In this document: one piece after another, positions 34,882-51,329 of the stretch
Layout: each line of letters starts with the position of its first letter
Numbering within the stretch: position 1 is the stretch's first letter
Assembly: GCA_019058365.1 (NCBI GenBank)
Contig: JAHPZE010000009.1
Coordinates: 67,034-131,033, forward strand
Length of the DNA: 64,000 nt
From: Promethearchaeota archaeon
GTDB lineage: Archaea; Asgardarchaeota; Lokiarchaeia; Sigyniarchaeales; SOKP01
Reading direction: 5' to 3'
The notes under the pieces: generated by a model
Told to the model about the DNA's origin: nothing
The model's database searches: none
Seen by the model: only the letters and a program-made list of their open reading frames with translations
Made by a program: the position numbers and the translations under genes

Positions 34882-36810
34882 TTAATTTGAATCAACAGAA
34901 TCACGCTGTATCCATACTGTCATTTGACTTTTACCACGATTAGCCCAAGCATAATAAGGGATAAGATGTATTTTTTCTAAATTCTTATCATTATTATGAA
35001 TAGAACCTGTAATACTAACAATCCCATTAAGTAAATCACTATGGTATTTCTCTTCGAGTAATATATTATCATTTAATTTTATATTAAATATGGATTCAAT
35101 TTCATTATCAACACTTTCAATACAATAAACAAGGGGACCTCGTTCAATTGCCACCTTATCGATATTTTCTTTAACCTTTGGATTACTTAATACTCTTCTA
35201 ATGGGCATTGGTATGCTTAATTCAATAGTATCGTTATCTTTCCAAGTTCTCTGAATTCTAATAAATCCATTTTTTATATGAAATTCTATTAATTCATTGT
35301 TGACTTTTATACTTAATTCCAGATTATTCGGTGTCAAGTAATAATATAAATCACTTGGAACTGGTTTGTTCTGTACCCAGCCAGGAATTCGAATTGCAAT
35401 AGCAAATTCTTTCGTCTGGGTCAGAGAGACTGCAATTTTTATTTCTCCATTCCATGGATAATTTGTTTCTTGAACAAGTGACACTTCCGTATCTTGAAAT
35501 TTAATCGATGCAATACTCCCAATAAAAAGATTAACATAAATACAATCATTTTCTAGCGCATAAATATAACCTGGAATCTGGGGTATAAAGCGTACAATAT
35601 TAGTAGGACAACAAGGACACTTATACCAAGATCTTCTGCTTACATTTCCTTTTGAAGAGAGAGGGTTAGTATAGAAAAATCCTTTTCCGTTTAATGAAAT
35701 TCCCGAAAGGAACCCATTATATAAAATACGTTCCAAAACATCAATATATTTAGCATCACCATACAATAAAAAAAGACGGAAATTCCAAAATATATTGGCA
35801 ATAGCAGCGCATGTTTCAGCATAAGCTTCAAAATTAGGCAATTCATATTCATCTCCAAAGCTTTCTCCTTCTGAACGAGCACCAATCCCCCCAGTTATAT
35901 ATAATTTTTTAGAAACTATATTATCCCAAATACGATTTATAGCTGTTTTGTATTCAGAAATATTGTAGAGTGACACGATATCTGTTATTGCTGAATACAT
36001 GTAAGCCGCTCGAACAGCATGTCCAACTGCTTCATATTGCTCAATGACTTTTTTATGAGATTGGTTATATTCAGGAGATCTTGCATCTTCAAAATAAATT
36101 TTAAATTTATTTAAATAATCTTCAAAATCAAATACTTTAGTAGAACCACGAAGGTCTAAGAAAAATTTTGCTAAATCTAAATATTTTGTACTATTTGTAA
36201 TTCTAAATAACCGAATCAAAGCAATTTCAATTTCTTGGTGTCCCGGAATTCTCTCTATTTTTCCTGGACCAAATTCATTATATATTAAATCTGCACTTTT
36301 AATCGCCGCATTTAACAATTTTTGTTTAGCTGTAGCTTGGTAATAGCCAATTGCCGCCTCAATAAGATGCCCCATATTGTATAATTCATGACTTAATATT
36401 GAAACTAATTCCCAACGTTCCTTACCAGCCCATACATGAGGGCTTTCTGGATTTATTGTCCGTGCAGTATATAAATATCCATCATCTTCTTGAGCCGCTG
36501 CTATTTTTTCAATTAAATAATCAACATAATCTTCGAGTTTAGAATCAGGTTTTATAATTAATGAATATGCTGCCCCCTCAATGACTTTAAAAACATCTGA
36601 ATCATCAAAAGGAAAGATCGGTTTTTTTCCGTCATTTAATAATCCTGCGGCTCTAGAAAAATTAGCAATACGTCCAGTCTTCTCGCAATTTTTAAATGCA
36701 TGAGGAATTGTTATTTTATGATTAATTTCTATTCTCGGAGACCAAAATCTATCATTTATCTTTACTTTATCAAGTGAAATTGGTCGAATTACTTTACCTG
36801 AAAAATCCAA
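34882..36810 (-). CDS. GH127 family glycoside hydrolase (beta-L-arabinofuranosidase-like)
   Basis: FDDSDVFK, HELYNMGH, GHQE, GHAVR, ETCAA and CPCCPTN motifs. Confidence 0.92.
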   Translation of the reverse strand: MDFSGKVIRPISLDKVKINDRFWSPRIEINHKITIPHAFKNCEKTGRIANFSRAAGLLNDGKKPIFPFDDSDVFKVIEGAAYSLIIKPDSKLEDYVDYLIEKIAAAQEDDGYLYTARTINPESPHVWAGKERWELVSILSHELYNMGHLIEAAIGYYQATAKQKLLNAAIKSADLIYNEFGPGKIERIPGHQEIEIALIRLFRITNSTKYLDLAKFFLDLRGSTKVFDFEDYLNKFKIYFEDARSPEYNQSHKKVIEQYEAVGHAVRAAYMYSAITDIVSLYNISEYKTAINRIWDNIVSKKLYITGGIGARSEGESFGDEYELPNFEAYAETCAAIANIFWNFRLFLLYGDAKYIDVLERILYNGFLSGISLNGKGFFYTNPLSSKGNVSRRSWYKCPCCPTNIVRFIPQIPGYIYALENDCIYVNLFIGSIASIKFQDTEVSLVQETNYPWNGEIKIAVSLTQTKEFAIAIRIPGWVQNKPVPSDLYYYLTPNNLELSIKVNNELIEFHIKNGFIRIQRTWKDNDTIELSIPMPIRRVLSNPKVKENIDKVAIERGPLVYCIESVDNEIESIFNIKLNDNILLEEKYHSDLLNGIVSITGSIHNNDKNLEKIHLIPYYAWANRGKSQMTVWIQRDSVDSN

Positions 36811-37059
36811 ATTATCAACCTTACAAAAAATTAATATTTCTCAATATTTTTTCTTAAAATTCTAGGTAAATTAAAAATATAAAATTTAAAAAAATTAGGA
36901 TTATGATTATCTAAATACCATTTAAGATAATCAAGAGAGATAAAATCATGATATTATGAATAATTGGATCTATCAAGCATTACCTAAAAAAAACAAGAGA
37001 AATTTATCAATTCAATAGATTTTACATTCTTTTATTTGGTTAAGAAAGTGTGATATGTC

Positions 37060-38046
37060 TTGAAAGAAAAGAATTTTTCAAAATTTCTCTCAAAGAGCAA
37101 TGTGGATAAAGAACAAGCAGCAATTTTTATTGCTAGATTAAATAAATTCGATAAATATCTTAAAAAAAATAATTATAATATTGATTCAATTCCTAAAGCA
37201 GAAATCCTCAAATATACAGAATATTTAATAGCAAATAATAATGACGCAGTGTTAGATTTATTAAGAGCTTTAATCAATTACGCTAATTTCATAAAAAATT
37301 ATGATTATATAATTGAGATTATCGACATCTCAGAATCTTATAATGCAATGGACAATCTTTTTCAAAGAGTTGCTGAGCAACATGGTGAGAAAATCCGAAA
37401 TGAAATTTTTGAAAACATATCAATTCCCCCTTTAGGAATTCATCCAGAGAAAAAACCTGAATTCACTAAAGTAATTATGAAAAGATTAATAGAAAAAATT
37501 GGTGATGAAAAAACAATAGGGTTATTAAAACCGTGTTTGCATGGTCGCCCTGGAGATATCACGAAGGATAGAGAAGATTTCTTAAGATTAAATGATATCG
37601 ATGAATTTTTAAAACTAAAAAAGCAAGAATTAATTGAAAGACTCCAAAAACATCAAAAGGAAGGAACCCTGGAATTTGCACAATATATCGATGAAGAAGT
37701 AATTGAATTTATAAAGAATACTCCAACAATTAATCCTGGAATAAGAGAGGGGGATAAAATTATTGAAGCTAAGCTGCCCTATCAAACAAAGAAACATATA
37801 CAAGCAAAAGAAAAGAGAATGAAAGGTTTTTTTAGTTGTTATTGTCCTTGGATACGAGGTGCTATTAAAAATGGTACTAACAATGAACTTTTCTCTCACT
37901 TCTGCTATTGTAGTGCAGGATACACAAAGAAATACTGGGATGTTATATTCGATCAACCAGTCACCGTGGAACCAATCGAAACATCTCTTACAGGAGGATT
38001 ATTATGCAAGTTTGCTGTTCATATTCCAAAAGAATTTCAAAAATAA
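37060..38046 (+). CDS. Cys-rich DUF6144/V4R-like protein
   Basis: CYCPW, FCYCSAGY and GGLLCKFAV motifs. Confidence 0.6.
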   Translation: MKEKNFSKFLSKSNVDKEQAAIFIARLNKFDKYLKKNNYNIDSIPKAEILKYTEYLIANNNDAVLDLLRALINYANFIKNYDYIIEIIDISESYNAMDNLFQRVAEQHGEKIRNEIFENISIPPLGIHPEKKPEFTKVIMKRLIEKIGDEKTIGLLKPCLHGRPGDITKDREDFLRLNDIDEFLKLKKQELIERLQKHQKEGTLEFAQYIDEEVIEFIKNTPTINPGIREGDKIIEAKLPYQTKKHIQAKEKRMKGFFSCYCPWIRGAIKNGTNNELFSHFCYCSAGYTKKYWDVIFDQPVTVEPIETSLTGGLLCKFAVHIPKEFQK

Positions 38047-38154
38047 GAATACATCCTTCTCAAATTTAAAATTATAAATAGGACAGATTTAAACCTAGAT
38101 TTTAAATTTCTTTAATTTTCAGTTCAATAAGTTCAATTCCACAAAGTCTTATCG

Positions 38155-38325
38155 CTATATTGGTGGGAAATGACCTGAGAAATAAATGAAACTCATAAAA
38201 GCGAAAAAAATCAATGTAAAAACTATTATAATGAGTATAAATCGAATATCATCATTAAGTTTTCTGATTCTGTCAAGTTTTTTTACAATTTCTTTTAATT
38301 GATTTTGGATATTTTCATCATTCAT
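38155..38325 (-). CDS. Small coiled-coil protein with C-terminal TM (56 aa), not in ORF track
   Basis: MNDENIQNQLKEIVKKLDRIRKLNDDIRFILIIIVFTLIFFAFMSFIYFSGHFPPI*. Confidence 0.55.
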   Translation of the reverse strand: MNDENIQNQLKEIVKKLDRIRKLNDDIRFILIIIVFTLIFFAFMSFIYFSGHFPPI

Positions 38326-38518
38326 AATAATACTCTAAATTTAAGATTTCAACTTAATATTATAAGATAAAAAGATATTTAAAAATTTATTATGGATTTA
38401 CTATATGAATTAACTCTCTCCTAATAAGGATAATTCTAAATTTTTTTTCTAAAAAAAATGTTAATTAGTATCTATAAATCAAAATCAATAATAAAATAAA
38501 GAATTAGAAAAATTAGTC

Positions 38519-39658
38519 TTATGTTTTTTTTAATTCCATCTGGGAAATTGCTTTTCCAGATCGGAATGGAATATCTTCAAGAGACATGCCTGCTTCATAT
38601 TTAAACTTCTTCTTAAAGGCTTCATTTAATGATTGGAAATATAGCGACAATGGTAAGTTTTGAGGACAGTTATTATCACAATTTCCGCATTCTACACATC
38701 TATCAGCATCATGAGCTATACGTGTTAATTGATATGTTGCTTTATCAATGTTTTTATCTTTCCTCTTCTTCTGTAATATACAATCCACGCAATAACAAAC
38801 GGGACAACCTCGAATACATGTATTGCACATAGTACATTTAAGTAATTCTGCAATTTTATCTTTTTGTGAGAGATTTTCCCATTCTGCTAGATCTTTAGCT
38901 CTTTTTTCTTTAGCTTTTTCGATTATTTCATTATATTTATCTGAATGTGCTTTTTTCTCCTTATCTGGAAGTGATTTTTTCTTGATTCCTGATTTCTCCA
39001 ATATATCATTTCCTTTATCAGAATACACTTTCAAGATAATCTCATCCGAATCAACTGGAATTCCAAGATCGCTTACAGTCAAATCAGCGACTACCGGAAT
39101 TTTGCGATAGCATCTCAAACAATTCTCAGCAACAGTAAGATTAAGCTCTTTTGTGCTTCCATCTTCCATCTTCACGATAAGACCGTTGTCTCCCACCTTT
39201 TCTTTTACAATTTTAGTTGGATCAACATCCTTAATCGCTCTCATTTCTCGTCCTGCTTTGGGAAGTAGCCCTCTATCTTCAATACCAATTATAAAGAGAT
39301 TATCAAGATTTATTTGCTTGATCTTTGCAAGTTCTATTAGTGCTCTCGTATCGCAAGGACGAGCAATTAATCCTACTTTTTCATTCATCGCACCTGCAAC
39401 AGATTTATGCAGATATTTTGAAGCAGAGTCTGTTCTTGCATAGCCAAATGCAATTAAAGGAGTTAATGGAAAATCCTTCACATCTTCTTCTTTTTCTGCT
39501 AATATAGGCTGAACAGTAAACCTGTCTATAGTCCCGGATTTCTTATCAACTCTCAATTCAGCACCGATTATTTTATCTACTGCTTTTTCTTTTAATAAAG
39601 TTGCTAAAATTTTAGAAAAATCTTCAATCTTTATCAAATATTCTGCTATTGCTTCCAT
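38519..39658 (-). CDS. F420 hydrogenase/formate dehydrogenase beta subunit (FrhB/FdhB family) with 2x[4Fe-4S]
   Basis: ARPCDTRALIEL, NCLRC..ADLTVSD, CTMCNTCIRGCPVCYC and CVECGNCDNNCP. Confidence 0.88.
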   Translation of the reverse strand: MEAIAEYLIKIEDFSKILATLLKEKAVDKIIGAELRVDKKSGTIDRFTVQPILAEKEEDVKDFPLTPLIAFGYARTDSASKYLHKSVAGAMNEKVGLIARPCDTRALIELAKIKQINLDNLFIIGIEDRGLLPKAGREMRAIKDVDPTKIVKEKVGDNGLIVKMEDGSTKELNLTVAENCLRCYRKIPVVADLTVSDLGIPVDSDEIILKVYSDKGNDILEKSGIKKKSLPDKEKKAHSDKYNEIIEKAKEKRAKDLAEWENLSQKDKIAELLKCTMCNTCIRGCPVCYCVDCILQKKRKDKNIDKATYQLTRIAHDADRCVECGNCDNNCPQNLPLSLYFQSLNEAFKKKFKYEAGMSLEDIPFRSGKAISQMELKKT

Positions 39659-39764
39659 GTAATCCCAACTCTATCTATCTACTTAACTAATATTTTTTTT
39701 AAATTTCTCAAATTTTTTGAAACATATTTTAAATATTTTTACTTAAATTTTTTAAACTATTTTT

Positions 39765-39837
39765 ATGTGTTATATGGTGCACCCATTTCTTCAACTGAGT
39801 TCTCACTTTTTTAACTCAATCTCATCAGTAAACACAT
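39765..39837 (-). promoter_or_regulatory. Eukaryote-like SECIS element in the 3' UTR of mvhD
   Basis: mRNA sense: AUGUGUU-uacug-AUGAG-AUUGAGUU-[AAAAAAGUGAG]-AACUCAGU-UGAA-gaa-AUGG-gugca-CCAU-au-AACACAU. It has a 7-bp helix I, an AUGA/UGA tandem G.A core, an 8-bp helix II and an A-rich apical loop, and begins 9 nt after the mvhD stop. Confidence 0.85.
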
Positions 39838-39845
39838 TAAATTTT

Positions 39846-40304
39846 TTAAGCCTTAGCTTTTGCTTTAGCTTTCTCTTTTTTAGGTGTGCCTTTCGAACGT
39901 AGCGGGCTTGGTCCTAATTTATGGACTGTCTTATCGATTTCTATTGCTTCGTTTTGAAATTTCTGTCCTTCAGCTGCGGTACAATAGATTATTTTTATTC
40001 TATCTGGGCTCATTCCAACAACTTTTAATATTTCTTTAGTGTATTCAACTTGTCTATATGCATGGTAATTTCCAGTCTCATAATCACATTCACCTGGGTA
40101 TCAAGCATTAATTACAACAGCATCTGCGCCTCTTCCAAATGCGCGCATAATTAAGTCAGGTCCTACACGTCCAGAACAAGGTACTAAAATGTTTCGTATT
40201 GAATCAGGATATTGAGCGCGGATTGTACCTGCCATATCGGCACTCCCATAACCTCATTTCCAGCAAGCAAAAACAATTATTTTAATATCATTTTCTTCTG
40301 CCAT
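39846..40304 (-). CDS. mvhD: Methyl-viologen-reducing hydrogenase delta subunit (MvhD/VhuD), selenoprotein with Sec17 and Sec68
   Basis: Absent from the ORF track. MAEENDIKIIVFACWK-U-GYGSADMAGTIRAQYPDSIRNILVPCSGRV..GADAVVINA-U-YPGECDYETGN..CTAAEG..LGPSPL, 152 aa. TGA at 40254-40256 and 40101-40103, stop TAA, RBS GAGGT. Confidence 0.93.
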
Positions 40305-40317
40305 GTTTCTTACCTCT

Positions 40318-42294
40318 CTATTCCTCTATTGGTAATAATACATCCATTAATGCCATATATTGTTCGTCTCTAAAGTATGCTAACTCAATTGCATGTGAAG
40401 GACACAACGAGGCACAGGTCCCGCAACCTCGACAATTAATTAAATTCACCACGAGATTTCCTTTTTCATTTACAGATATAGCGCTATATGGACAAGCTTC
40501 TATACATTTATAGCATTTAGCGCAACGTTCATCTGATGGCGTCGCTCTGATTAATTCCATAGTATATTCTCCCTTACTCATAGGAATTCCCGCTACTGAT
40601 GCAGCTCCTCGAGCTTGACTCACTGCTTTATCAATCTCTTTCTGTCCTTGAGCTGAACCGCAGATATATATACCAGGTACTTTAGTGCTAATTGGATCAA
40701 GCCGAGCATGATATTCCTTTAAGAAACCATCAGGACTTTTCTCCATGTTTAGTACTTTAGCAATTTCTATCGTACCTTGGGATGGAAGTGAAGCAGATGA
40801 TAATATAACCATATGAGCTTCCATTTTAACAACAGAATCAGTTCCAACTGGTTCAAATTGTACTAAAAGATTCTTCGTTAAAGGATCTTCTTCAATTTTT
40901 CCAACCATTCCTTTTACAAAGATAGTTCCAGCATCACGGGATCTTCTATAATATTCTTCATAATCCTTCCCGGCACATCTCATATCTATATAGCAACAGA
41001 TAATTTGTGAATCAGGATATTCTGATTTGATTAATTTAGAGTTTTTAAGCGAAAGGTTGCAGCATATAACACTGCAATGAGCATTTTTATTTACATCTCT
41101 TGATCCTACACAATTTATAAATATAATTTTAGTAGGACGCTTTCCATCAGAAGGACGCTTTAAATGTCCATATGTTGGACCATTTGGAGCGAGGATCCTT
41201 TCTAATTCTATCTGATTGATTACATTATCATAAGTACCATATCCATAATCATTACCTTGATAGAGATCCCAACCGGTAGCTACGATTATTGTACCAACTT
41301 TAAGTTCAACAATTTTATCCTTTTGACTAAAATCTATCGCTTCTTGTTCACATGCATCGACACATGCGAAGCATTCAATGCATACATTTCTCTCAAGTTG
41401 TGACACTGCAGGTACTGCTTGAGCAAAAGCAATATCAATGACTTTTCTTGCTGATAAGTGCTCATCAAAATAGTTACTCGTGTAAACTGGGCATACGTCT
41501 CGACAGGTTCCACATCCTGTACATTTCGTTTCATCAACAAATCGTGCTTTTCTTCTCACTTTGACATTGAAATTGCCAATATATCCATCTATCACATCAA
41601 CTTCACTATATGATAAGATTTCTATATTTGGATGGCGATTAGCTTCTAGCATTTTCGGTCCCAAGATTCATATAGAACAATCATCTGTAGGGAAGGTTCT
41701 ATCGAGTTGGGACATACGTCCGCCAATTGTTGTATTTTTTTCAACTAAATATACCTTATATCCAGCATCACCTAAATCGATAGCGGCAGATAAACCTGCA
41801 ATTCCACCACCTACTACTAAAGCTGCGGGTTCTACTGGTACGGTTTTAGTAGGCACATCTTCCAATAATTTCGCTCGAGCAATACCAGCTTTGATTAATT
41901 CAATAGCTTTTAAAGTAGCTTTTTCACGTACTTCTGGAGCTTGGTGTACAAAGGAACAATGCTCTCGAATGTTAACGAATTCTAAGTATCTTGGAGGTAA
42001 ACCCATCTCTTTTAATATTGCGTGAAAAACGGGTTGATGAGTTTTTGGAGTACAAGCAGCAACTAAAACCCTATCAAATTTAAATTCTGCATGTCTTTCC
42101 TTGATTTCAGTAGATCCACCTTCCGTACATAAAGAGAGATATGGATAAGCCCAAACATTATCTAATTTATTTATTTCCTCGACAATCTTTGGAATGTCTA
42201 AGATTCCTGCGATATTGACACCTCAATGGCATACGAACACACCTATTCTTATTTGATCTTCGTCATTATTTTCATTGGTCTGTTTATCAGACAA
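40318..42294 (-). CDS. hdrA: Heterodisulfide reductase subunit A, selenoprotein with Sec24 and Sec209
   Basis: TTG start after AGGTGA. One continuous frame joins both track ORFs: RIGVFVCH-U-GVNIAG (TGA 42223-42225) and TFPTDDCSI-U-ILGPKM (TGA 41668-41670). 658 aa with GGGIAG FAD motif and several CxxCxxCxxxC; stop TAG. Confidence 0.93.
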
Positions 42295-42300
42295 ATTCTT

Positions 42301-42401
42301 CACCTTTAGTTAGAATAACCTCCTAACTTTTAAAGATCGACTATTTCATAGATTAGTTTTTCATACTAATCCCAGAAATACTAATGATAAAGTAAATAGT
42401 C
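42301..42401 (-). promoter_or_regulatory. Candidate structured 5' leader of hdrA
   Basis: Inverted repeats GACTATTT/AAATAGTC, GATTAGT/ACTAATC and AGTTAGGA/TTCTAACT, plus ATCTTT/AAAGGT overlapping the RBS. Confidence 0.45.
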
Positions 42402-42716
42402 TATATTATTAAAATTAAATTATTATGAAAATTCAATTCTCTCTTACTCAAATTTAGTATTTGGAAATAGGATTTTTTATTAATGTGACTTAATTATTTT
42501 TGACTTGCTCGAGATCATAAAAAAGAATTAAAAAAATTATCATTTTCAAACATTTAACAATAAATTTTTATTATTTACGATCAAATTTCATAAAGAATTT
42601 TAAATTTATATATAATTTAATTTTCCTGAAGTTATTTTATAAACAATTACCCCCATGAAATCAAATAATAAAATAAAAAAAAATAGCTTAAGTTATCAAT
42701 ATTCGATTAATTAAAA

Positions 42717-44297
42717 TTAGCTCAAGAGTGCCATTATATTTCCTAATTCTTTCATTTTTTTCGCTCCTTTCACCTTTAGCTTCCCAGAAAGCATTTTCCC
42801 TATCATTGCAACTTTAGATAACTTTCCACTACTAAAATCGAAAAATAAGCCCGCGGGACATGCGAGTAAACCATCTACTTTTAGATTTTTTAATGTTTCT
42901 TCATCATTCCTCACATGATCTACTTCTAATCTTCCATTTTCTACCGTAATCAACGCACCATATCGTTGGTCAGTGAGATTATATAAAAAACTCATCTTTG
43001 CTTCAGCATATTGTTCCTTAAATTTAGGTTTATCATTAATTTTTCCCATTTGTCCCCATAATAAACCTGCTAAGCCTCTTCTCTCTTTCTCTTTTGGAGG
43101 TTTTTTCTTCGCCTCTTCAGTATTTCGCCATACATCAAAAGACTCTCTCTTTGGCAGTACAAAATTTATGTCCTCTAAGTTATCTGCGATTGGTAATTTT
43201 CCATATGTATGAGTAGCAGCTACAGCTGCATGAATATGATCTGAAGGAGTATCATAGGGTACATTCATAAGGAAAATACTTAAATTATGATCACGAGCAA
43301 AGGCATCAATATATCTCTTAACCGTATCTACAATTTTATCAATTGGACCATCACGTAGCAATCGGGCATTTATACCTGCAGTTACTGTTACAGGTGTCCC
43401 TTTCTTACGAAACTTTTCTGTGTAATCACGAACAGCTTCAAGGGGATATTCGTGCCAACGTCCCATACCTAAAAATATGGCAGGAGTTCCTCCCATGCTA
43501 GCAATTTCTACATCAAAACTATCATGAAGGATTTTAGGATCAAATTTTTCTATCCTTTCTTCACAATAATCTCCACTTACATTCATTGTGGTGACCCCGA
43601 TTTTTTTTACATTCTTCTCAAGTCTTTGATTATAGGGGACTACCCATTCTTTCATCTCATCAGGAGATAAATTTGGCACACAAGCCCAAGCATCAGCTCC
43701 TATTCCCATTAGAGCATCCATAGCTTCATTTTGAGCCTTAACCGAAGGAGTTAATACATCATCAACGATAAATTTAAATACTTCATGAGCGAAATCTGGT
43801 TGTTTTCTCATCGCTTTAATAAGTGCTGGAAAACCCATCAATCCTACTGCTAAACTAAAGGGTGAGCAAAAAGAAACCATTGACATATCAGATTGTACTA
43901 ATCCACCCGATTTCAATAACGACGGATATCGACCAGCTGTATGGAAATCAACTTTTTTCATTTTTAATTTTTTAAGATCTTCAGGGCTCTTAATTAATGG
44001 ATCACGAAAATCAATAGTAGGCATCGAATTTTCACCATAAATTAACTTTCCACCTAATGCTTCTACTTCAAGATCATATATATCAAATCCTCCTGCAGGA
44101 CTATCCAAATTATAATAACGCCCAATTATTTCACCCATTTCGTAATTAAAGACAAAATCGCTATAAAACCTTTTAGCGGGTGATTTAGTAAGATACATCA
44201 CATGGTCATGGCATTGAGCTCCGATAGTGAGTGTGCCTTTATCTCCTCTTGAAATGAGACTTCCCAAATCTTTTTTCACTTCACCTGTTTGAGACAA
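42717..44297 (-). CDS. MtaA/CmuA (uroporphyrinogen decarboxylase superfamily) methyltransferase fused to a C-terminal SCP2 domain
   Basis: DLEVEALGG, GRYP, CSPFSLA, LLRDGP and VPYDTP..IHAAV; tail GALITVENGRLEV..DFSSGKLS..MLSGKLKVKG is SCP2-like. Confidence 0.8.
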   Translation of the reverse strand: MSQTGEVKKDLGSLISRGDKGTLTIGAQCHDHVMYLTKSPAKRFYSDFVFNYEMGEIIGRYYNLDSPAGGFDIYDLEVEALGGKLIYGENSMPTIDFRDPLIKSPEDLKKLKMKKVDFHTAGRYPSLLKSGGLVQSDMSMVSFCSPFSLAVGLMGFPALIKAMRKQPDFAHEVFKFIVDDVLTPSVKAQNEAMDALMGIGADAWACVPNLSPDEMKEWVVPYNQRLEKNVKKIGVTTMNVSGDYCEERIEKFDPKILHDSFDVEIASMGGTPAIFLGMGRWHEYPLEAVRDYTEKFRKKGTPVTVTAGINARLLRDGPIDKIVDTVKRYIDAFARDHNLSIFLMNVPYDTPSDHIHAAVAATHTYGKLPIADNLEDINFVLPKRESFDVWRNTEEAKKKPPKEKERRGLAGLLWGQMGKINDKPKFKEQYAEAKMSFLYNLTDQRYGALITVENGRLEVDHVRNDEETLKNLKVDGLLACPAGLFFDFSSGKLSKVAMIGKMLSGKLKVKGAKKMKELGNIMALLS

Positions 44298-44301
44298 TTC
44301 A

Positions 44302-44946
44302 TTACACCCCCATCAATTTTTTTGCTTTTTCCACAGAGTCAAATGCATCTTTTCCCCAAGCATCTGCGCCAATTTCATCAGCATATTCTTGAGTACAGGG
44401 AACTCCACCTATCATTACTTTAAGCTTATTCCTTAAACCTTCATTTTTAAGTCTATTAATTACTTCTTTCATTTCTAACATAGTGGTTGACATATAACAT
44501 CCTAGACCTAAAATATTAGGGTTTAATTCCTTTACTTTTTGTATAAAGATATCTTGTGAAACATCTTCCCCTAGATCAATAACATTAAATCCTCCTCCTC
44601 GTAAAGTCGCATTGACCATAATCTTACCTAGATTATGCATATCCCCCGCAACAGTACCTATTAAAACCTTACCAGAAGTTCCTATCTCTCCAGCAGATAA
44701 TTTTGGTTCTATAACTTCCATAGCTAATCTGAAAGCTTCAGCACATAATATTATATCTGTGTGAAAATAAATATTTTGTTTCCATAATTCTCCAGCTTCT
44801 TGTACTCCTGGCACTATTCCTTCATTTACTATTTTAATTGGCTCTATTTTTTCCTTTAATGCTTTCTTAGCAAGTTCTTGAGCAAGTTCATCATCACCTT
44901 CAAGAACTGCTTTCTTTAATTTATCTAATATACTTGAAATACTCAT
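44302..44946 (-). CDS. Corrinoid (B12-binding) methyltransferase protein, MtbC/MtaC-like
   Basis: Four-helix cap plus GTVAGDMHNLGK (DxHxxG), MIGG and IGADAW. Confidence 0.92.
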   Translation of the reverse strand: MSISSILDKLKKAVLEGDDELAQELAKKALKEKIEPIKIVNEGIVPGVQEAGELWKQNIYFHTDIILCAEAFRLAMEVIEPKLSAGEIGTSGKVLIGTVAGDMHNLGKIMVNATLRGGGFNVIDLGEDVSQDIFIQKVKELNPNILGLGCYMSTTMLEMKEVINRLKNEGLRNKLKVMIGGVPCTQEYADEIGADAWGKDAFDSVEKAKKLMGV

Positions 44947-45164
44947 TACACCATCACACCTAATTTCAAATTATGAAGATATAACATCTTGAATAAAAAT
45001 TGAATATCTTCAATTTAAATTTCAACTTTTGTATTTAAATAGTTTTAATTTTTATCAAAAGAAATTAATAATATTCAATTAAACTCAGCATTGTAGAACA
45101 TGCTTATATTGTATAAAGTGGTTATTATTAGGAGAAGGGTAATTTTTCAGGTTTACTTTCTTAT

Positions 45165-45641
45165 TTATAATAATAGGATCATTTCTTTATCACCATCATT
45201 TTCTTTAAAACCATATTTCTCATACAATCGTCTTCCATATGGAGTTGCATGTAAAACTACTGATTCTATACTATGTTTCTTTATTTCATCTAATAATTTC
45301 TCAAGTAATTCTGAGCCAATACCTTTTCTACGCCATTCAGGTTTAGTATACATATTCATAATATAGGCAAATTTTCCCGTTATATTGATAAAATGGGGAG
45401 GTTTCTGTAGAAAAGATAATCCACTTGTAGCGATGATTTCATTATCTGATTCTGCTAACCACGCAATAAACTCATTGGATTTCATTTTGTCAATGAAAAA
45501 TTCTTTTAAATATTTCTGAAATATCTCAATTTCCTTATCAGGTGGAAAATCTTGAATTTCTTTTAAAAATTCAATTCGAAATTCTATCAGTTTGTCTATA
45601 TCATCTAGAATCGCTTTTCTAAGTAAGTACATAACTATCAT
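45165..45641 (-). CDS. GNAT family acetyltransferase
   Basis: NMYTKPEWRRKGIG and LYEKYGF motifs. Confidence 0.9.
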   Translation of the reverse strand: MIVMYLLRKAILDDIDKLIEFRIEFLKEIQDFPPDKEIEIFQKYLKEFFIDKMKSNEFIAWLAESDNEIIATSGLSFLQKPPHFINITGKFAYIMNMYTKPEWRRKGIGSELLEKLLDEIKKHSIESVVLHATPYGRRLYEKYGFKENDGDKEMILLL

Positions 45642-45790
45642 CTAAGATTAAAAATATTTAATCCTTCACATTAGTAATAATAATATCCCTAATATTTTAT
45701 CTAATCAAGAAATTACTACGTATCACTAAAACAGACTATTTATATAAACAATGAAATTAAGAAAAAAATAGAAATAATAAAAATTTTGAT

Positions 45791-46348
45791 TTAAGCTTCA
45801 GTTTCTTTCAATATATCCCCAAATAGTCTCTTTACAGCATCAATCCGTTTTTCTTCACCAATTTGTTCCACATCTTTTAATGAGATGGCTTCTTTTGGAC
45901 AGACGTCAATACAAGCAGGATATCTTTCTCCTCTCTCAGGATCGATATAATCATCTTTCATAGTTTCACATAGATCACAAATCAGAGCCTTCTGAGATTG
46001 AATATGTAGACTAAGTACACCGAAATCGCACGCTCTGATACAGAACGCACATCCATTACATTTATCGTCATCAACTATAATTGATCCTGTCTGTTTATCT
46101 TGCTCTAAAGCTTTTTCTGGACAACTTCGAACACATGGTGCATCATCACATTTTTGACAGGCTAACGCGACATTTAAAATAGGTTCAATCCGTACTCTAT
46201 GAATTCTAGTGTTAATCGGGTTAAATTCACCATCATGTACAAAAGAACATACAGATTCACAAGTTTCACAACCAGTACATAAGTTTGGATCGACAATAAT
46301 AAATTGGTGTACAACCCCCCCTCTCTTTTTTGTACCACTTTTTGACAT
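45791..46348 (-). CDS. 4Fe-4S ferredoxin subunit of aldehyde oxidoreductase (AorA/HydN-like)
   Basis: CTGCETCESVC, CQKCDDAPCVRSCP, CNGCAFCIRAC and CDLC..PACIDVCP; abuts the AOR gene. Confidence 0.88.
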   Translation of the reverse strand: MSKSGTKKRGGVVHQFIIVDPNLCTGCETCESVCSFVHDGEFNPINTRIHRVRIEPILNVALACQKCDDAPCVRSCPEKALEQDKQTGSIIVDDDKCNGCAFCIRACDFGVLSLHIQSQKALICDLCETMKDDYIDPERGERYPACIDVCPKEAISLKDVEQIGEEKRIDAVKRLFGDILKETEA

Positions 46349-48566: not shown

Positions 48567-51329
48567 TTATACTAAAAAGAGTAGTTTTCCGAGAAAACTT
48601 AAAATATCAATGACTTTTATCTTACTTTTTAAATCTCTGTTTTCATTTAGATAACAGTTTAAATGAGCGATGCATTTAGGACATGCCGTAATTAGATATT
48701 CTGCTCCTGTTGCTATTGCTTGTCTAATCTTTTTTTCCTGAAATTTTTTAGAATCTTGATTGCAAGAAACATACGCAGAAACACCACAACAATCTGCATC
48801 TTGTTTAGCATCTTCCATTTCCACTAAATCTAAAGATGGGATAAGCTTCAATACCTCACGTGGTGCATCAAAAACATTACTCATTCTCCCAAGCCTACAT
48901 GGATCATGGTAAGTCACTTTAATTTTGTCGAAACCAGGAAATGTTATATCTTCTAATAAATTTTCTTTAAGAATATACTCACTAATGTGATAAATATCAA
49001 AATCAAACTCATCATTATCTTCAAATAGCTGTTTATACTCATTTTTCCATGTATAATATCCTTCAGCGCAACTAAAGACTAGAGTTTTGACTCCTGCATC
49101 TTTAAATAGTTTTACATTATATTCCGCTAATTTTTTAAATGTTTCAACATCTCCTCGCCAAAGACTATCATGTCCACAACATTTTTCTTGAGGCAAAACT
49201 ACTGGAGTTATACCATTTTGATTTAATAGACCAATTACACTCTTGGGGATCTCATAATAGTTAGGTGCATTTATTGAAGACCAGATATTTTGACTCCCAT
49301 AATCACAGATCATAACACCTGAATCATCAAGTGCTTTTTCAAAATCCTCTGGTATCTGGTCAGTATTACAACAACAATTACAATTCAAACATCGATTAGC
49401 TTCTTTCTTTGCTTGTTCCTCAGTAAATCCTAATTCCATTTCATCAAAACAGACTAATCTCTCAGAACCAGGCATAAAATTCATGTTTTGACATGCTTGA
49501 GTTTGGATATATTTTTTAGGTATTGCGGATCGTTTAAGATCATTTTTTCTTATCCTTCCTTCCTTTAAGTCAAGTCCTCGGAGATAACTATTAATTGAAT
49601 AAGCCGCTTCTCTACCATTCCCAATAGCATCGACAGCGCACATCAATGAGTTATTAATTATATCACCACCAGCAAAGACTCCTGGAATTCCTGTTTCAAA
49701 TGTTAAATCATCAACTACAATTTTACCTCTTTCAATGTCTAATTTATTTTCTGTAGCAGCATTAATAGGTTCTGGATCAAGCCCTTGACCGATAGCTATG
49801 ACAATATAATCAACAACTATTTTAAACTCTGAACCTTCAATTTTACTTAATGGTCTTCTTCCTGTTTTAGGATCTGGATCTCCCCATTTTATTTTATAAC
49901 AATTTAAGGCTAATTTACCATCAGATTCTTGTGTGATGTTTGTGGTTGATGTCTCAAAATGATACTCCATTACTTCTCGTTCAGCTTCATGTAAATCTTT
50001 AAGTACGTTCTTTAGAGTCTCTTCAGTTAAAATATCAACGAGATCAACTTTGGTTGCTCCTAACCGAAGTGCTGTTTCACCAACATCTACAGCAACGGCG
50101 CCGCCTCCTATAATTCCAAAAGTTTTTCCTTTAAATTCTTCTGGATTTTCTGAACATTTATATTTTCGGTCTAAAAGGAAATCAAGTGCCACATGGACAT
50201 TTGATAAATTCTCACCTTCAAGTCTGAGAGTCTTGGGGACGTATAAACCTACAGCTATAAAGATTGCCTTATATCCTTTTTTCCATATATCTTCTATAGT
50301 AAAATCTGGACCGAATTCTTTATTTAAAACAATTTCTACTCCCATACTTTTTATAAACTCTACATCATGGTCAAGTGCTTCGTCAGAAAGTCTGTATTGT
50401 GGGACGCCATATCTTACTACTCCCCCAGTTTTATTTCCTTTTTCAAAGATCGTCGGTTTATAGCCCATTCTTGCAAGAAAGTATGCAGCTGACAAACCTC
50501 CAGGTCCAGCTCCTATAATAGCTACTTTTTCTTTTGTCTGTGGTACTGGTTTTATTTTACTTTGATTAGGATGTTCAACTTCCCAATCAGAGACAAACCG
50601 CTTAAGTTCACGGATAGCTACAGGATCATCAAAATATTGACGGTTACAATTTAAGGCACATTGAGCTGTACAAATTCTTCCGCATAAGTAAGGTAAAGGG
50701 TTTGTTTCTCTTATCAAATCAATAGCTTCTTGATACTTACCTTCTGCTATTAGAGATACATAACCCTGAACATCAACCCCTGCAGGGCATCCTACCACAC
50801 ATGGAGCCGCTCCAGTTAAAAAGGGAACGCATCCCATAAAATAGCCAATTTCTCCTTTATTAGTTATTTTTAATCCCGTTCCTTCAAGGAAACCTATTTT
50901 ATTAGTAAATTTAATTTTGTCTTCAGCCATTAATTTTGGTAAACTTGAATAAACCCTCTCATGATTACAACTTATTAACCCCTCTTGTAATGGTTTATAT
51001 TCTGATGCAAGAGAGCGAAGATCTTTAATTATTTGGGTAAAATTTACTCCAGTATCTTCCTTAGTCATTGGGCAATAAACTGAACATAGACCACAAGTAA
51101 GACACTTCCATATATCATTATTTTTTAAAGCCTCTTCTGGTGTTAGAAAAGTTAAATCTACAATTAAGCTGCGGGGGTAAAAGATATCTAGAAATGCAGT
51201 TGGGCAAACATTATTGCAACGATTACAATTATAACAATAGTTAGCAGCAGAATTAACTTTTTTAAGTAACTCTATTGAAGCTGTTTTCTTGATTTTATCA
51301 TCAGCTACTTTATCATCAGATTCAGTCAT
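48567..51329 (-). CDS. HdrD-like (HdrC + CCG) protein with an inserted GltD/NfnB-like FAD/NAD(P) module
   Basis: In order: CYNCNRCNNVCP and CLTCGLCSVYCP; GYFMGC; APC..CPAG, CGRIC, GAGPGG, GGGAVA, EANRCLNC; then EKCCG, YHDPCRLGR, CCG and TACPKC. Confidence 0.85.
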   Translation of the reverse strand: MTESDDKVADDKIKKTASIELLKKVNSAANYCYNCNRCNNVCPTAFLDIFYPRSLIVDLTFLTPEEALKNNDIWKCLTCGLCSVYCPMTKEDTGVNFTQIIKDLRSLASEYKPLQEGLISCNHERVYSSLPKLMAEDKIKFTNKIGFLEGTGLKITNKGEIGYFMGCVPFLTGAAPCVVGCPAGVDVQGYVSLIAEGKYQEAIDLIRETNPLPYLCGRICTAQCALNCNRQYFDDPVAIRELKRFVSDWEVEHPNQSKIKPVPQTKEKVAIIGAGPGGLSAAYFLARMGYKPTIFEKGNKTGGVVRYGVPQYRLSDEALDHDVEFIKSMGVEIVLNKEFGPDFTIEDIWKKGYKAIFIAVGLYVPKTLRLEGENLSNVHVALDFLLDRKYKCSENPEEFKGKTFGIIGGGAVAVDVGETALRLGATKVDLVDILTEETLKNVLKDLHEAEREVMEYHFETSTTNITQESDGKLALNCYKIKWGDPDPKTGRRPLSKIEGSEFKIVVDYIVIAIGQGLDPEPINAATENKLDIERGKIVVDDLTFETGIPGVFAGGDIINNSLMCAVDAIGNGREAAYSINSYLRGLDLKEGRIRKNDLKRSAIPKKYIQTQACQNMNFMPGSERLVCFDEMELGFTEEQAKKEANRCLNCNCCCNTDQIPEDFEKALDDSGVMICDYGSQNIWSSINAPNYYEIPKSVIGLLNQNGITPVVLPQEKCCGHDSLWRGDVETFKKLAEYNVKLFKDAGVKTLVFSCAEGYYTWKNEYKQLFEDNDEFDFDIYHISEYILKENLLEDITFPGFDKIKVTYHDPCRLGRMSNVFDAPREVLKLIPSLDLVEMEDAKQDADCCGVSAYVSCNQDSKKFQEKKIRQAIATGAEYLITACPKCIAHLNCYLNENRDLKSKIKVIDILSFLGKLLFLV

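Follow-up and report, generated by a model that had tools for sequence, protein, structure and literature searches.

A 64,000-nucleotide (nt) stretch of DNA from a Promethearchaeota archaeon, here called the window (C21:67034-131033 of a 4.74-Mb genome in 54 contigs with 29.5% GC), carries on its minus strand the adjacent genes hdrA and vhuD (also named mvhD), whose frames are interrupted by four TGA codons, and, just past vhuD, a candidate selenocysteine insertion sequence (SECIS) of the lokiSECIS type. The closest relatives of the genome in the species collection are metagenome-assembled genomes of Promethearchaeota (Asgard/Loki-type). Under translation table 11 the locus appears as separate open reading frame (ORF) fragments on the minus strand, which merge into hdrA and vhuD once TGA is read as selenocysteine (Sec, U). 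An initial annotation, made from the sequence alone, had reported in-frame TGAs at 42223, 41668, 40254 and 40101, a spacing of 13 nt between hdrA and mvhD, and stop codons other than TGA in all three genes of the supposed operon; each of these readings held on re-examination, the stops being TAG for hdrA, TAA for vhuD and TAA for the FrhB-like gene that follows. The coordinates are collected in Table 1.

The same annotation had taken the two read-through products for HdrA and MvhD with TGA at conserved Cys positions, and alignment of the full-length translations bore this out, with all four Sec residues falling on Cys or Sec columns. HdrA carries Pfam FAD and 4Fe-4S domains, scores 730 bits against the NCBIfam HdrA2/HdrA models and matches the solved chain 9sfi_A with E=1e-205. 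In that alignment Sec24 stands opposite Cys, and U209 (TGA 41668), the Sec at the canonical position near residue 200, stands opposite the non-standard residue X, which would fit, as expected, a Sec-containing methanogen HdrA. VhuD matches Pfam FlpD (PF02662, E=1e-40), NCBIfam VhuD and the PDB chains 9sw2_D and 5odc_D; its two Sec residues, separated by 51 codons, both lie opposite Cys in 9sw2_D.

Table 1. Features of the hdrA-vhuD locus and the tRNA-Sec candidate of the same genome. Positions are those of the window unless a contig is named.
Feature	Position	Strand	Description
Oligo-T run	42674..42683	minus	about 10 T, after the URO-D methyltransferase gene ending at 42717
AT-rich block	42383..42427	minus	contains UUUUAAUAAUAUA (…UUUAAUUUUAAUAAUAUAGACUAUUUAC…); near-invariant in 22 aligned Asgard leaders
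hdrA leader hairpin	42351..42371	minus	GAUUAGU-AUGAAAA-ACUAAUC; covaries in orthologs
hdrA	40318..42294	minus	658 codons + TAG stop (40318-40320); start TTG 42294; translated with TGA=U
UGA 1, HdrA Sec24	42223..42225	minus	context VCH-U-G
UGA 2, HdrA Sec209	41668..41670	minus	canonical site; context DDCSI-U-ILG
vhuD Shine-Dalgarno	40312..40317	minus	AGAGGU, within the 13-nt gap, directly 3' of hdrA TAG, 7 nt before vhuD ATG
vhuD/mvhD	39846..40304	minus	ATG 40304, TAA 39846-39848, 152 aa
UGA 3, VhuD Sec17	40254..40256	minus	context CWK-U-GYG
UGA 4, VhuD Sec68	40101..40103	minus	context NA-U-YPGEC
Full conserved 3' element	39765..39837	minus	73 nt; helix I + SECIS arm + hairpin 2, RNAalifold
Helix I	39837-39831 with 39771-39765	minus	AUGUGUU/AACACAU
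lokiSECIS core	39791..39825	minus	AUGA, 9-bp helix GAUUGAGUU/AACUCAGUU, 11-nt loop AAAAAAGUGAG, GA
Hairpin 2	39786-39774	minus	AUGG-GUGCA-CCAU, between GA and the 3' strand of helix I
FrhB/FdhB-like iron-sulfur gene	38519..39658	minus	Pfam FrhB_FdhB_C + Fer4; TAA stop, then T-runs
tRNA-Sec candidate	~C34:23041-23197 (= L075:17042-17198)	plus	found by relaxed anticodon-stem search

Comparison with 34 Asgard loci that hold an hdrA-vhuD pair related to the one in the window, about 25 of them orthologous loci with both genes complete, showed that the arrangement is conserved. The two vhuD TGAs occupy the same positions in 25 orthologous operons, as do the hdrA TGAs wherever hdrA is complete, and a few orthologs have an additional third TGA near HdrA residue 59. 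The hdrA-vhuD gap, 13 nt in the window, is about 12-35 nt in the 34 loci, counting up to where the tblastn match begins. Near the HdrA C-terminus no TGA occurs in the frame of any ortholog; hdrA accordingly ends in TAA or TAG in every case, and never in UGA. In an alignment of 22 orthologous leaders the hdrA start column reads ATG, GTG or TTG and lies 5 nt after an invariant Shine-Dalgarno sequence, AAGGUGA; because these three codons share a single column at this distance from the motif, we take the TTG at 42294 to be the true start. Across the 25 operons, entropy at third codon positions (0.95 bits) exceeded that at first and second positions (0.125 bits), which indicates that selection acts on the full-length read-through proteins, and this purifying selection continues through and past the UGAs. 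The genome itself contains three further Sec-type hdrA-vhuD pairs with the same layout, together with eleven Cys-type FlpD genes.

A search of the genome for the Sec machinery recovered SepSecS (480 bits, over the curated cut-off), two copies of SelD with one in-frame TGA each, an EFsec candidate (a 472-aa GTPase that scores highest against the selB family, 241 bits, versus 132 bits for EF-Tu) and a PSTK candidate (269 aa, best family archaeal PSTK TIGR03574, 4e-44); the EFsec and PSTK scores are under the curated cut-offs, yet these are the best families for the two ORFs. Neither ARAGORN, run with or without introns, nor the Rfam tRNA-Sec model found a tRNA-Sec in the genome, and a strict descriptor of D arm and anticodon gave no match; three matches to the Rfam model were ordinary tRNAs, and a T-arm match near SepSecS was ruled out as a multi-intron tRNA-Ile(UAU). 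The relaxed anticodon-stem search yielded the candidate listed in Table 1, whose UCA anticodon sits in a CUUCAAA loop and which has a 9-bp acceptor stem, a 4-bp T stem, a discriminator G and an encoded CCA. It is broken up by two insertions, one of about 36 nt in the D-loop region and another of about 30 nt in the T loop; with both removed in silico, 140 of 176 splice variants are identified by ARAGORN as tRNA-SeC. SepSecS is the gene immediately downstream of the candidate, and the EFsec gene is 4.5 kb away; a T-loop intron, the only one there, and linkage to EFsec have been described for the Loki tRNA-Sec (Mariotti et al. 2016, PMC4989117), whereas the candidate here carries the insertion in the D-loop region as well. 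The genome has, in sum, the archaeal/eukaryotic-type Sec-utilisation trait, with its tRNA-Sec recognised only after removal of two insertions. Genome-wide, ARAGORN found only 30 tRNAs, so many tRNAs here probably have non-canonical introns; a tRNA-Ile(UAU)-like gene at about C34:25520-25700 on the minus strand (= L075:19480-19700) is divided by two or more long insertions. TGA terminates 328 of 2289 long ORFs (14%), roughly as often as TAG, and the code is therefore not reassigned.

The SECIS core begins 20 nt past the vhuD TAA. Its AUGA (39825-39822) and GA (39792-39791) are essentially invariant in 27 orthologs, its minimum-free-energy fold gives exactly 9 bp and an 11-nt loop, and the loop, AAAAAAGUGAG, is A-rich at the start and ends in AG, as lokiSECIS demands. 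The published lokiSECIS has AUGA on the 5' side, a 9-bp stem, an 11-nt loop whose first five nucleotides are A-rich and whose last G is usually preceded by A, and GA (AA in some) on the 3' side, and it lies close to the end of the coding sequence (PMC4989117); the window element agrees with this description in its flanks, in stem and loop size, in the A-rich loop and in its position. Compensatory changes keep the stem paired: among paralogs, both sides of the stem change in seven of the nine base pairs and 91.9% of cells are paired, compared with 36-52% when the partner strand is slid by 1-3 columns; among orthologs, both sides change in two of the nine. By these features the element after vhuD is a predicted kink-turn-type lokiSECIS. 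From its AUGA at 39825 the four TGAs are 2398, 1843, 429 and 276 nt away.

We then searched the operon for any second signal. A relaxed descriptor ([AG]UGA, 8-10 bp stem, 10-14 nt A-rich loop, GA or AA) applied to the 3.1 kb of 39700-42800 had a single mismatch-free match, the element at 39825-39791, with 0.005 expected by chance; allowing two mismatches added one further match, with 1.4 expected. This agrees with the initial annotation, which had seen its only clear SECIS after mvhD, about 2.4 kb from the first TGA. Across the Asgard set, a SECIS stands at the 3' end of vhuD in 34 of 34 loci, 26 of them by the strict descriptor and eight as a variant with a one-nucleotide bulge recognised in the alignment of 3' untranslated regions (3'UTRs). 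Elsewhere in the 92.8 kb of these loci the descriptor matched 12 times, at scattered places, and the eight matches that were inspected are mutually unrelated except for one orthologous coding pair. In five orthologs the descriptor also matched some 300 nt before hdrA; these sequences are AT-only and unrelated to one another, and they were rejected as chance. At one paralogous hdrA/vhuD junction (L037:1465-1501, C9) a match with AUGA, 9 bp including one mismatch, a 13-nt A-rich loop and GA overlaps the first vhuD codons; it is probably a chance match in A-rich coding sequence.

A test of synonymous sites, which is independent of any SECIS model, found no 12-codon window of significantly suppressed change in hdrA or vhuD: the lowest third-position windows were reached in 178 (hdrA) and 595 of 1000 permutations, and third-position entropy in the windows just past the four UGAs was ordinary (0.78-1.06 bits). 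The 3' element, by comparison, has a mean entropy of 0.22 bits between flanks of 0.72-0.76 bits. There is no other RNA-level constraint in the coding sequence of the unit. The initial annotation had also pointed to a scan of the whole operon with a SECIS covariance model. Here the outcome was divided: the descriptor and the synonymous sites show one element, downstream of vhuD only, whereas the covariance model proved insensitive. That model (R1), built from 11 paralogous SECIS cores, was too sequence-specific, missed the SECIS of the window and gave noise as its best matches (E about 0.3), and it was dropped as evidence of absence.

Several points in the sequence suggest that hdrA and vhuD share one mRNA: the gap between them holds a Shine-Dalgarno sequence and is too short for a promoter, hdrA is preceded by a conserved promoter-like block, and the next gene upstream is followed by a T-run. 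The AT-rich block at 42383-42427 is probably the promoter of the unit, with a B recognition element (BRE) and TATA box, and the T-run at 42674-42683 looks like a terminator that would set its upstream limit. Between the block and hdrA, the leader hairpin is replaced at the same position in other loci by UUCUUAG/CUAAGAA or UCCUA/UAGGA, and across the 22 leaders neither an AUGA..GA nor a GAA_A motif is conserved in it, nor is its loop sequence; it is not SECIS-like. An invariant UUAGGAGGUUA motif stands at 42319-42323 on the minus strand, about 25 nt before the hdrA start. On the other side of the pair, 132 nt beyond the SECIS element, comes the FrhB-like gene, which is syntenic in the orthologs and may be either a third cistron or a gene with a promoter of its own. 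Neighbouring genes on the minus strand (42717-44946 and 48567-51329) encode a URO-D-family methyltransferase and a B12-binding protein, and an aldehyde:ferredoxin oxidoreductase, and the same neighbourhood contains a 920-aa protein with GltD-like and HdrD/CCG domains. No hdrB or hdrC adjoins hdrA-vhuD.

Taken as a whole, the locus is best explained as a Sec-decoding bicistron of a Loki-type Asgard archaeon, a reading to which we give a probability of roughly 0.8. Transcription would most likely start at the AT-rich block, which precedes hdrA by about 100-130 nt, and run through both genes, and translation of vhuD would begin from a separate Shine-Dalgarno sequence within the 13-nt gap. The single lokiSECIS past the vhuD stop would recruit a complex of EFsec and Sec-tRNA(Sec), which would be delivered to ribosomes paused at any of the four UGAs, 276-2398 nt upstream, in both cistrons. 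The comparative evidence thus supports a SECIS that would act at long range and across a cistron boundary; that the two genes are co-transcribed and that Sec is actually inserted at the four UGAs is what we infer here, as the literature has done for related loci.

Six observations weigh against this reading. An Rfam search of 36000-46000 at E<=10 returned no SECIS family (including RF00031), only noise from snoRNA models; lokiSECIS is likewise outside the eukaryotic SECIS model (Mariotti et al. 2016, PMC4989117), and the element would function like a eukaryotic SECIS but is no member of that family by the Rfam model. Because R1 missed the SECIS of the window, absence elsewhere as judged by that model is weak. 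The hdrA leader contains a covarying hairpin. Between the SECIS and the FrhB-like gene there is no clear oligo-T terminator and no run of at least 5 T. In the only functional test found, a minimal lokiarchaeal vhuU SECIS placed in Methanococcus maripaludis gave background activity, 21.1 mU/mg against 22.1 mU/mg for the control with no SECIS (PMC11881835). Finally, archaea have no known homologue of SBP2 (PMC4989117, PMC11881835).

The missing terminator bears on where the transcript ends. With no clear oligo-T after the SECIS, the element may be intercistronic instead of lying in a 3'UTR, within an hdrA-vhuD-frhB-like tricistronic mRNA, which would be a variant of the bicistron and not exclusive of it. 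T-runs follow the FrhB-like gene, and the three-gene order with the same FrhB-like start recurs at least in L056. Against such a transcript, the start of the FrhB-like gene is preceded, at a distance of about 45 nt, by a conserved AT-rich motif (UUUGGGAAAUUUAAGAAA in orthologs) that resembles a separate promoter, and in some orthologs UUUUU comes directly after helix I; on balance we consider a tricistronic arrangement somewhat unlikely, although a serious candidate.

A different division of labour, in which the 3' SECIS would serve vhuD only and hdrA would have a hidden recoding signal of its own, in the leader hairpin at 42351-42371 or within its coding sequence, appears improbable. It draws on the compensatory changes conserved in that hairpin, on the insensitivity of the covariance model and on analogy with the 5'-UTR SECIS of a methanogen fdhA gene, 5'-UTR SECIS variants and an fdhA1 SECIS being among the M. 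maripaludis reporter constructs (PMC11881835). Yet neither of the two core motifs is conserved in the hairpin, its loop is variable, the descriptor finds nothing above chance in hdrA, and the third positions of hdrA are free, including those after both of its UGAs (0.78-1.06 bits; minimum reached in 178 of 1000 permutations). That the TGAs are not Sec codons at all, but reflect a reassigned code, sequencing or assembly errors or pseudogenes, has nothing in its favour except the bare in-frame stops and is effectively refuted by the share of long ORFs that end in TGA (14%, about as for TAG), by the same four TGA positions in about 25 independent metagenome-assembled genomes, and by TGAs on Cys/Sec columns in full-length frames under selection in a genome that encodes the Sec machinery.

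Within the bicistron reading, the structure of the 3' element allows one further proposal. RNAalifold applied to 27 orthologous 3'UTRs returned exactly three parts, helix I, the SECIS arm and hairpin 2, and conservation among the orthologs ends exactly at the ends of helix I. Helix I and the stem of hairpin 2 are near-invariant in these orthologs and therefore uninformative for covariation. MAFFT alignment across the ortholog and paralog groups of SECIS was not in register, with the paralog lower helix also unaligned, so the three-way junction was judged across families by constrained folding with shuffled flanks as a control. The three-way architecture formed in 14 of 14 SECIS elements, from hdrA-vhuD, vhuU and UU-protein genes (the last described below), with helices of different sequence: CCGAA/UUCGG, CCCCU/GGGGU and UCCGAAA/UUUCGGA in the paralogous hdrA-vhuD loci and GUUGGUUU/AAACCAAC at the vhuU SECIS. 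The control is loose, with 10-30% of shuffles giving the same architecture.

We suggest only tentatively that the functional shared SECIS could be the whole 73-nt junction, with a k-junction-like fold, instead of the 35-nt hairpin alone. The lower helix may then close the kink-turn arm together with an additional hairpin of 4-6 bp that is inserted into the 3' (non-bulged) strand. If this is true, the extra hairpin and the lower helix would be part of the platform for an archaeal SECIS-binding factor, which could explain the inactivity of the minimal Loki SECIS in the heterologous test. Published models of Asgard SECIS describe the core, upper stem and loop and also mention a lower stem (PMC4989117, PMC11227280), and the main texts of these two papers make no mention of the extra hairpin; this detail may be the only part of our analysis that goes beyond the literature.

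Further selenoprotein genes in the genome carry related elements. A paralogous Sec-type vhuD (C16:433518-433988, minus strand; L033) has an in-frame UGA near its C-terminus that is the UGA of the SECIS AUGA core; its end reads …PVE-UGA-CUC-UUA-UAA, so that translation would end either within the SECIS core itself or two codons later, in helix II. A small vhuU-like gene (…CFDC-U-LSCAAH…; C16:94100-94258, plus strand; L076) follows a large ORF resembling a hydrogenase subunit, and here the terminal UGA overlaps the SECIS AUGA and one extra A stands between AUGA and the stem. At C34:290239-290715 on the plus strand (= L077:740-1216) lies a gene for a 158-aa protein with adjacent UGAs (…HAD-UU-ADV…) and no Pfam match, which we call the UU protein; a lokiSECIS begins 11 nt past its stop, and a paralog is found at C34:292034-292501. 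Both TGAs are kept in 39 of 39 matches, from 33 of 41 related genomes. An assignment of this gene (SECIS at C34:290724) as prxL was rejected, given the absence of a Pfam match and the adjacent UU instead of a CxxC box.

The arrangement of one SECIS shared by two cistrons is already known, from Lokiarchaeota since 2016 and from Asgard archaea in general since 2024. Sec-containing HdrA and VhuD with eukaryote-like 3' SECIS elements, which the initial annotation had given as established in Lokiarchaeota, are stated in PMC4989117. Mariotti et al. 2016 (PMC4989117) found only one lokiSECIS in the Lokiarchaeum HdrA-VhuD tandem pairs (Loki/Laz contigs), downstream of VhuD; on a polycistronic mRNA as many as six UGAs, spread across about 2 kb, may be decoded by it, and the HdrA stop is in every case UAA or UAG. 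According to Huang, Xiao and Zhang 2024 (PMC11227280), hdrA invariably adjoins frhD in Sec-utilising Asgard genomes, and nearly every such pair has one eSECIS-like structure in common. Because this model was published in both papers, the long-range sharing proposed in the initial annotation amounts to an independent rediscovery, and the locus is a typical member of its class: with the arrangement in the literature since 2016, it is a clean, well-annotated further example and no discovery. Its value for annotation is practical, since standard gene callers would fragment hdrA and miss vhuD, and precise coordinates can now be given for the true start, the promoter block, the Shine-Dalgarno sequences and the full 73-nt element.

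Set beside the Lokiarchaeum pairs (PMC4989117), the window has the same gene order, the same tiny gap, a multi-Sec HdrA that includes the canonical Sec near residue 200, two VhuD Sec about 50 codons apart, one SECIS after VhuD and an HdrA stop of UAA/UAG. It differs in having 2+2 Sec where the paper reports up to 4+2, in a first UGA 2.4 kb from the SECIS compared with about 2 kb, and in coming from another Promethearchaeota genome, and there is no essential difference. The window element also fits the model of the Asgard type I eSECIS-like elements (PMC11227280), which has a GA_[G/A]A core, an upper stem of 7-15 bp and a loop of 8-20 nt, whereas the hairpin between GA and the lower stem in the window element is absent from the main text of that paper. 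Methanosarcina HdrA2 (NF040770), an HdrA-MvhD fusion, corresponds to HdrA of the window over model positions 1-640 and to VhuD over 645-773; in the window the protein is split into two Sec-containing cistrons, and both scores are below the family cut-off.

The comparison with more distant Sec systems runs in two directions. Methanococcales and Methanopyrus have orthologous proteins, hdrA-vhuD synteny and a two-Sec VhuD with one 3' SECIS, and their VhuD SECIS also carries AUGA..GA/AAC; there, however, each gene has its own archaeal (GAA_A) SECIS, whereas hdrA of the window has none and the element that follows vhuD is of the kink-turn, eukaryote-like type. Eukaryotic SECIS elements (RF00031), including that of the multi-UGA selenoprotein P (SelP), resemble the window element in the AUGA/GA quartet core, the A-rich apical loop and the position after the coding sequence, and also in serving several UGAs at long range, an action that is predicted for the window. 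The window element differs from them in a helix II of 9 bp compared with about 12 bp or more, in having no Rfam match, in the lack of SBP2, in a presumably polycistronic mRNA and in the third hairpin within its internal loop. One eukaryote-like SECIS serving the UGAs of two cistrons on a prokaryotic mRNA would represent a notable intermediate between archaeal and eukaryotic Sec decoding.

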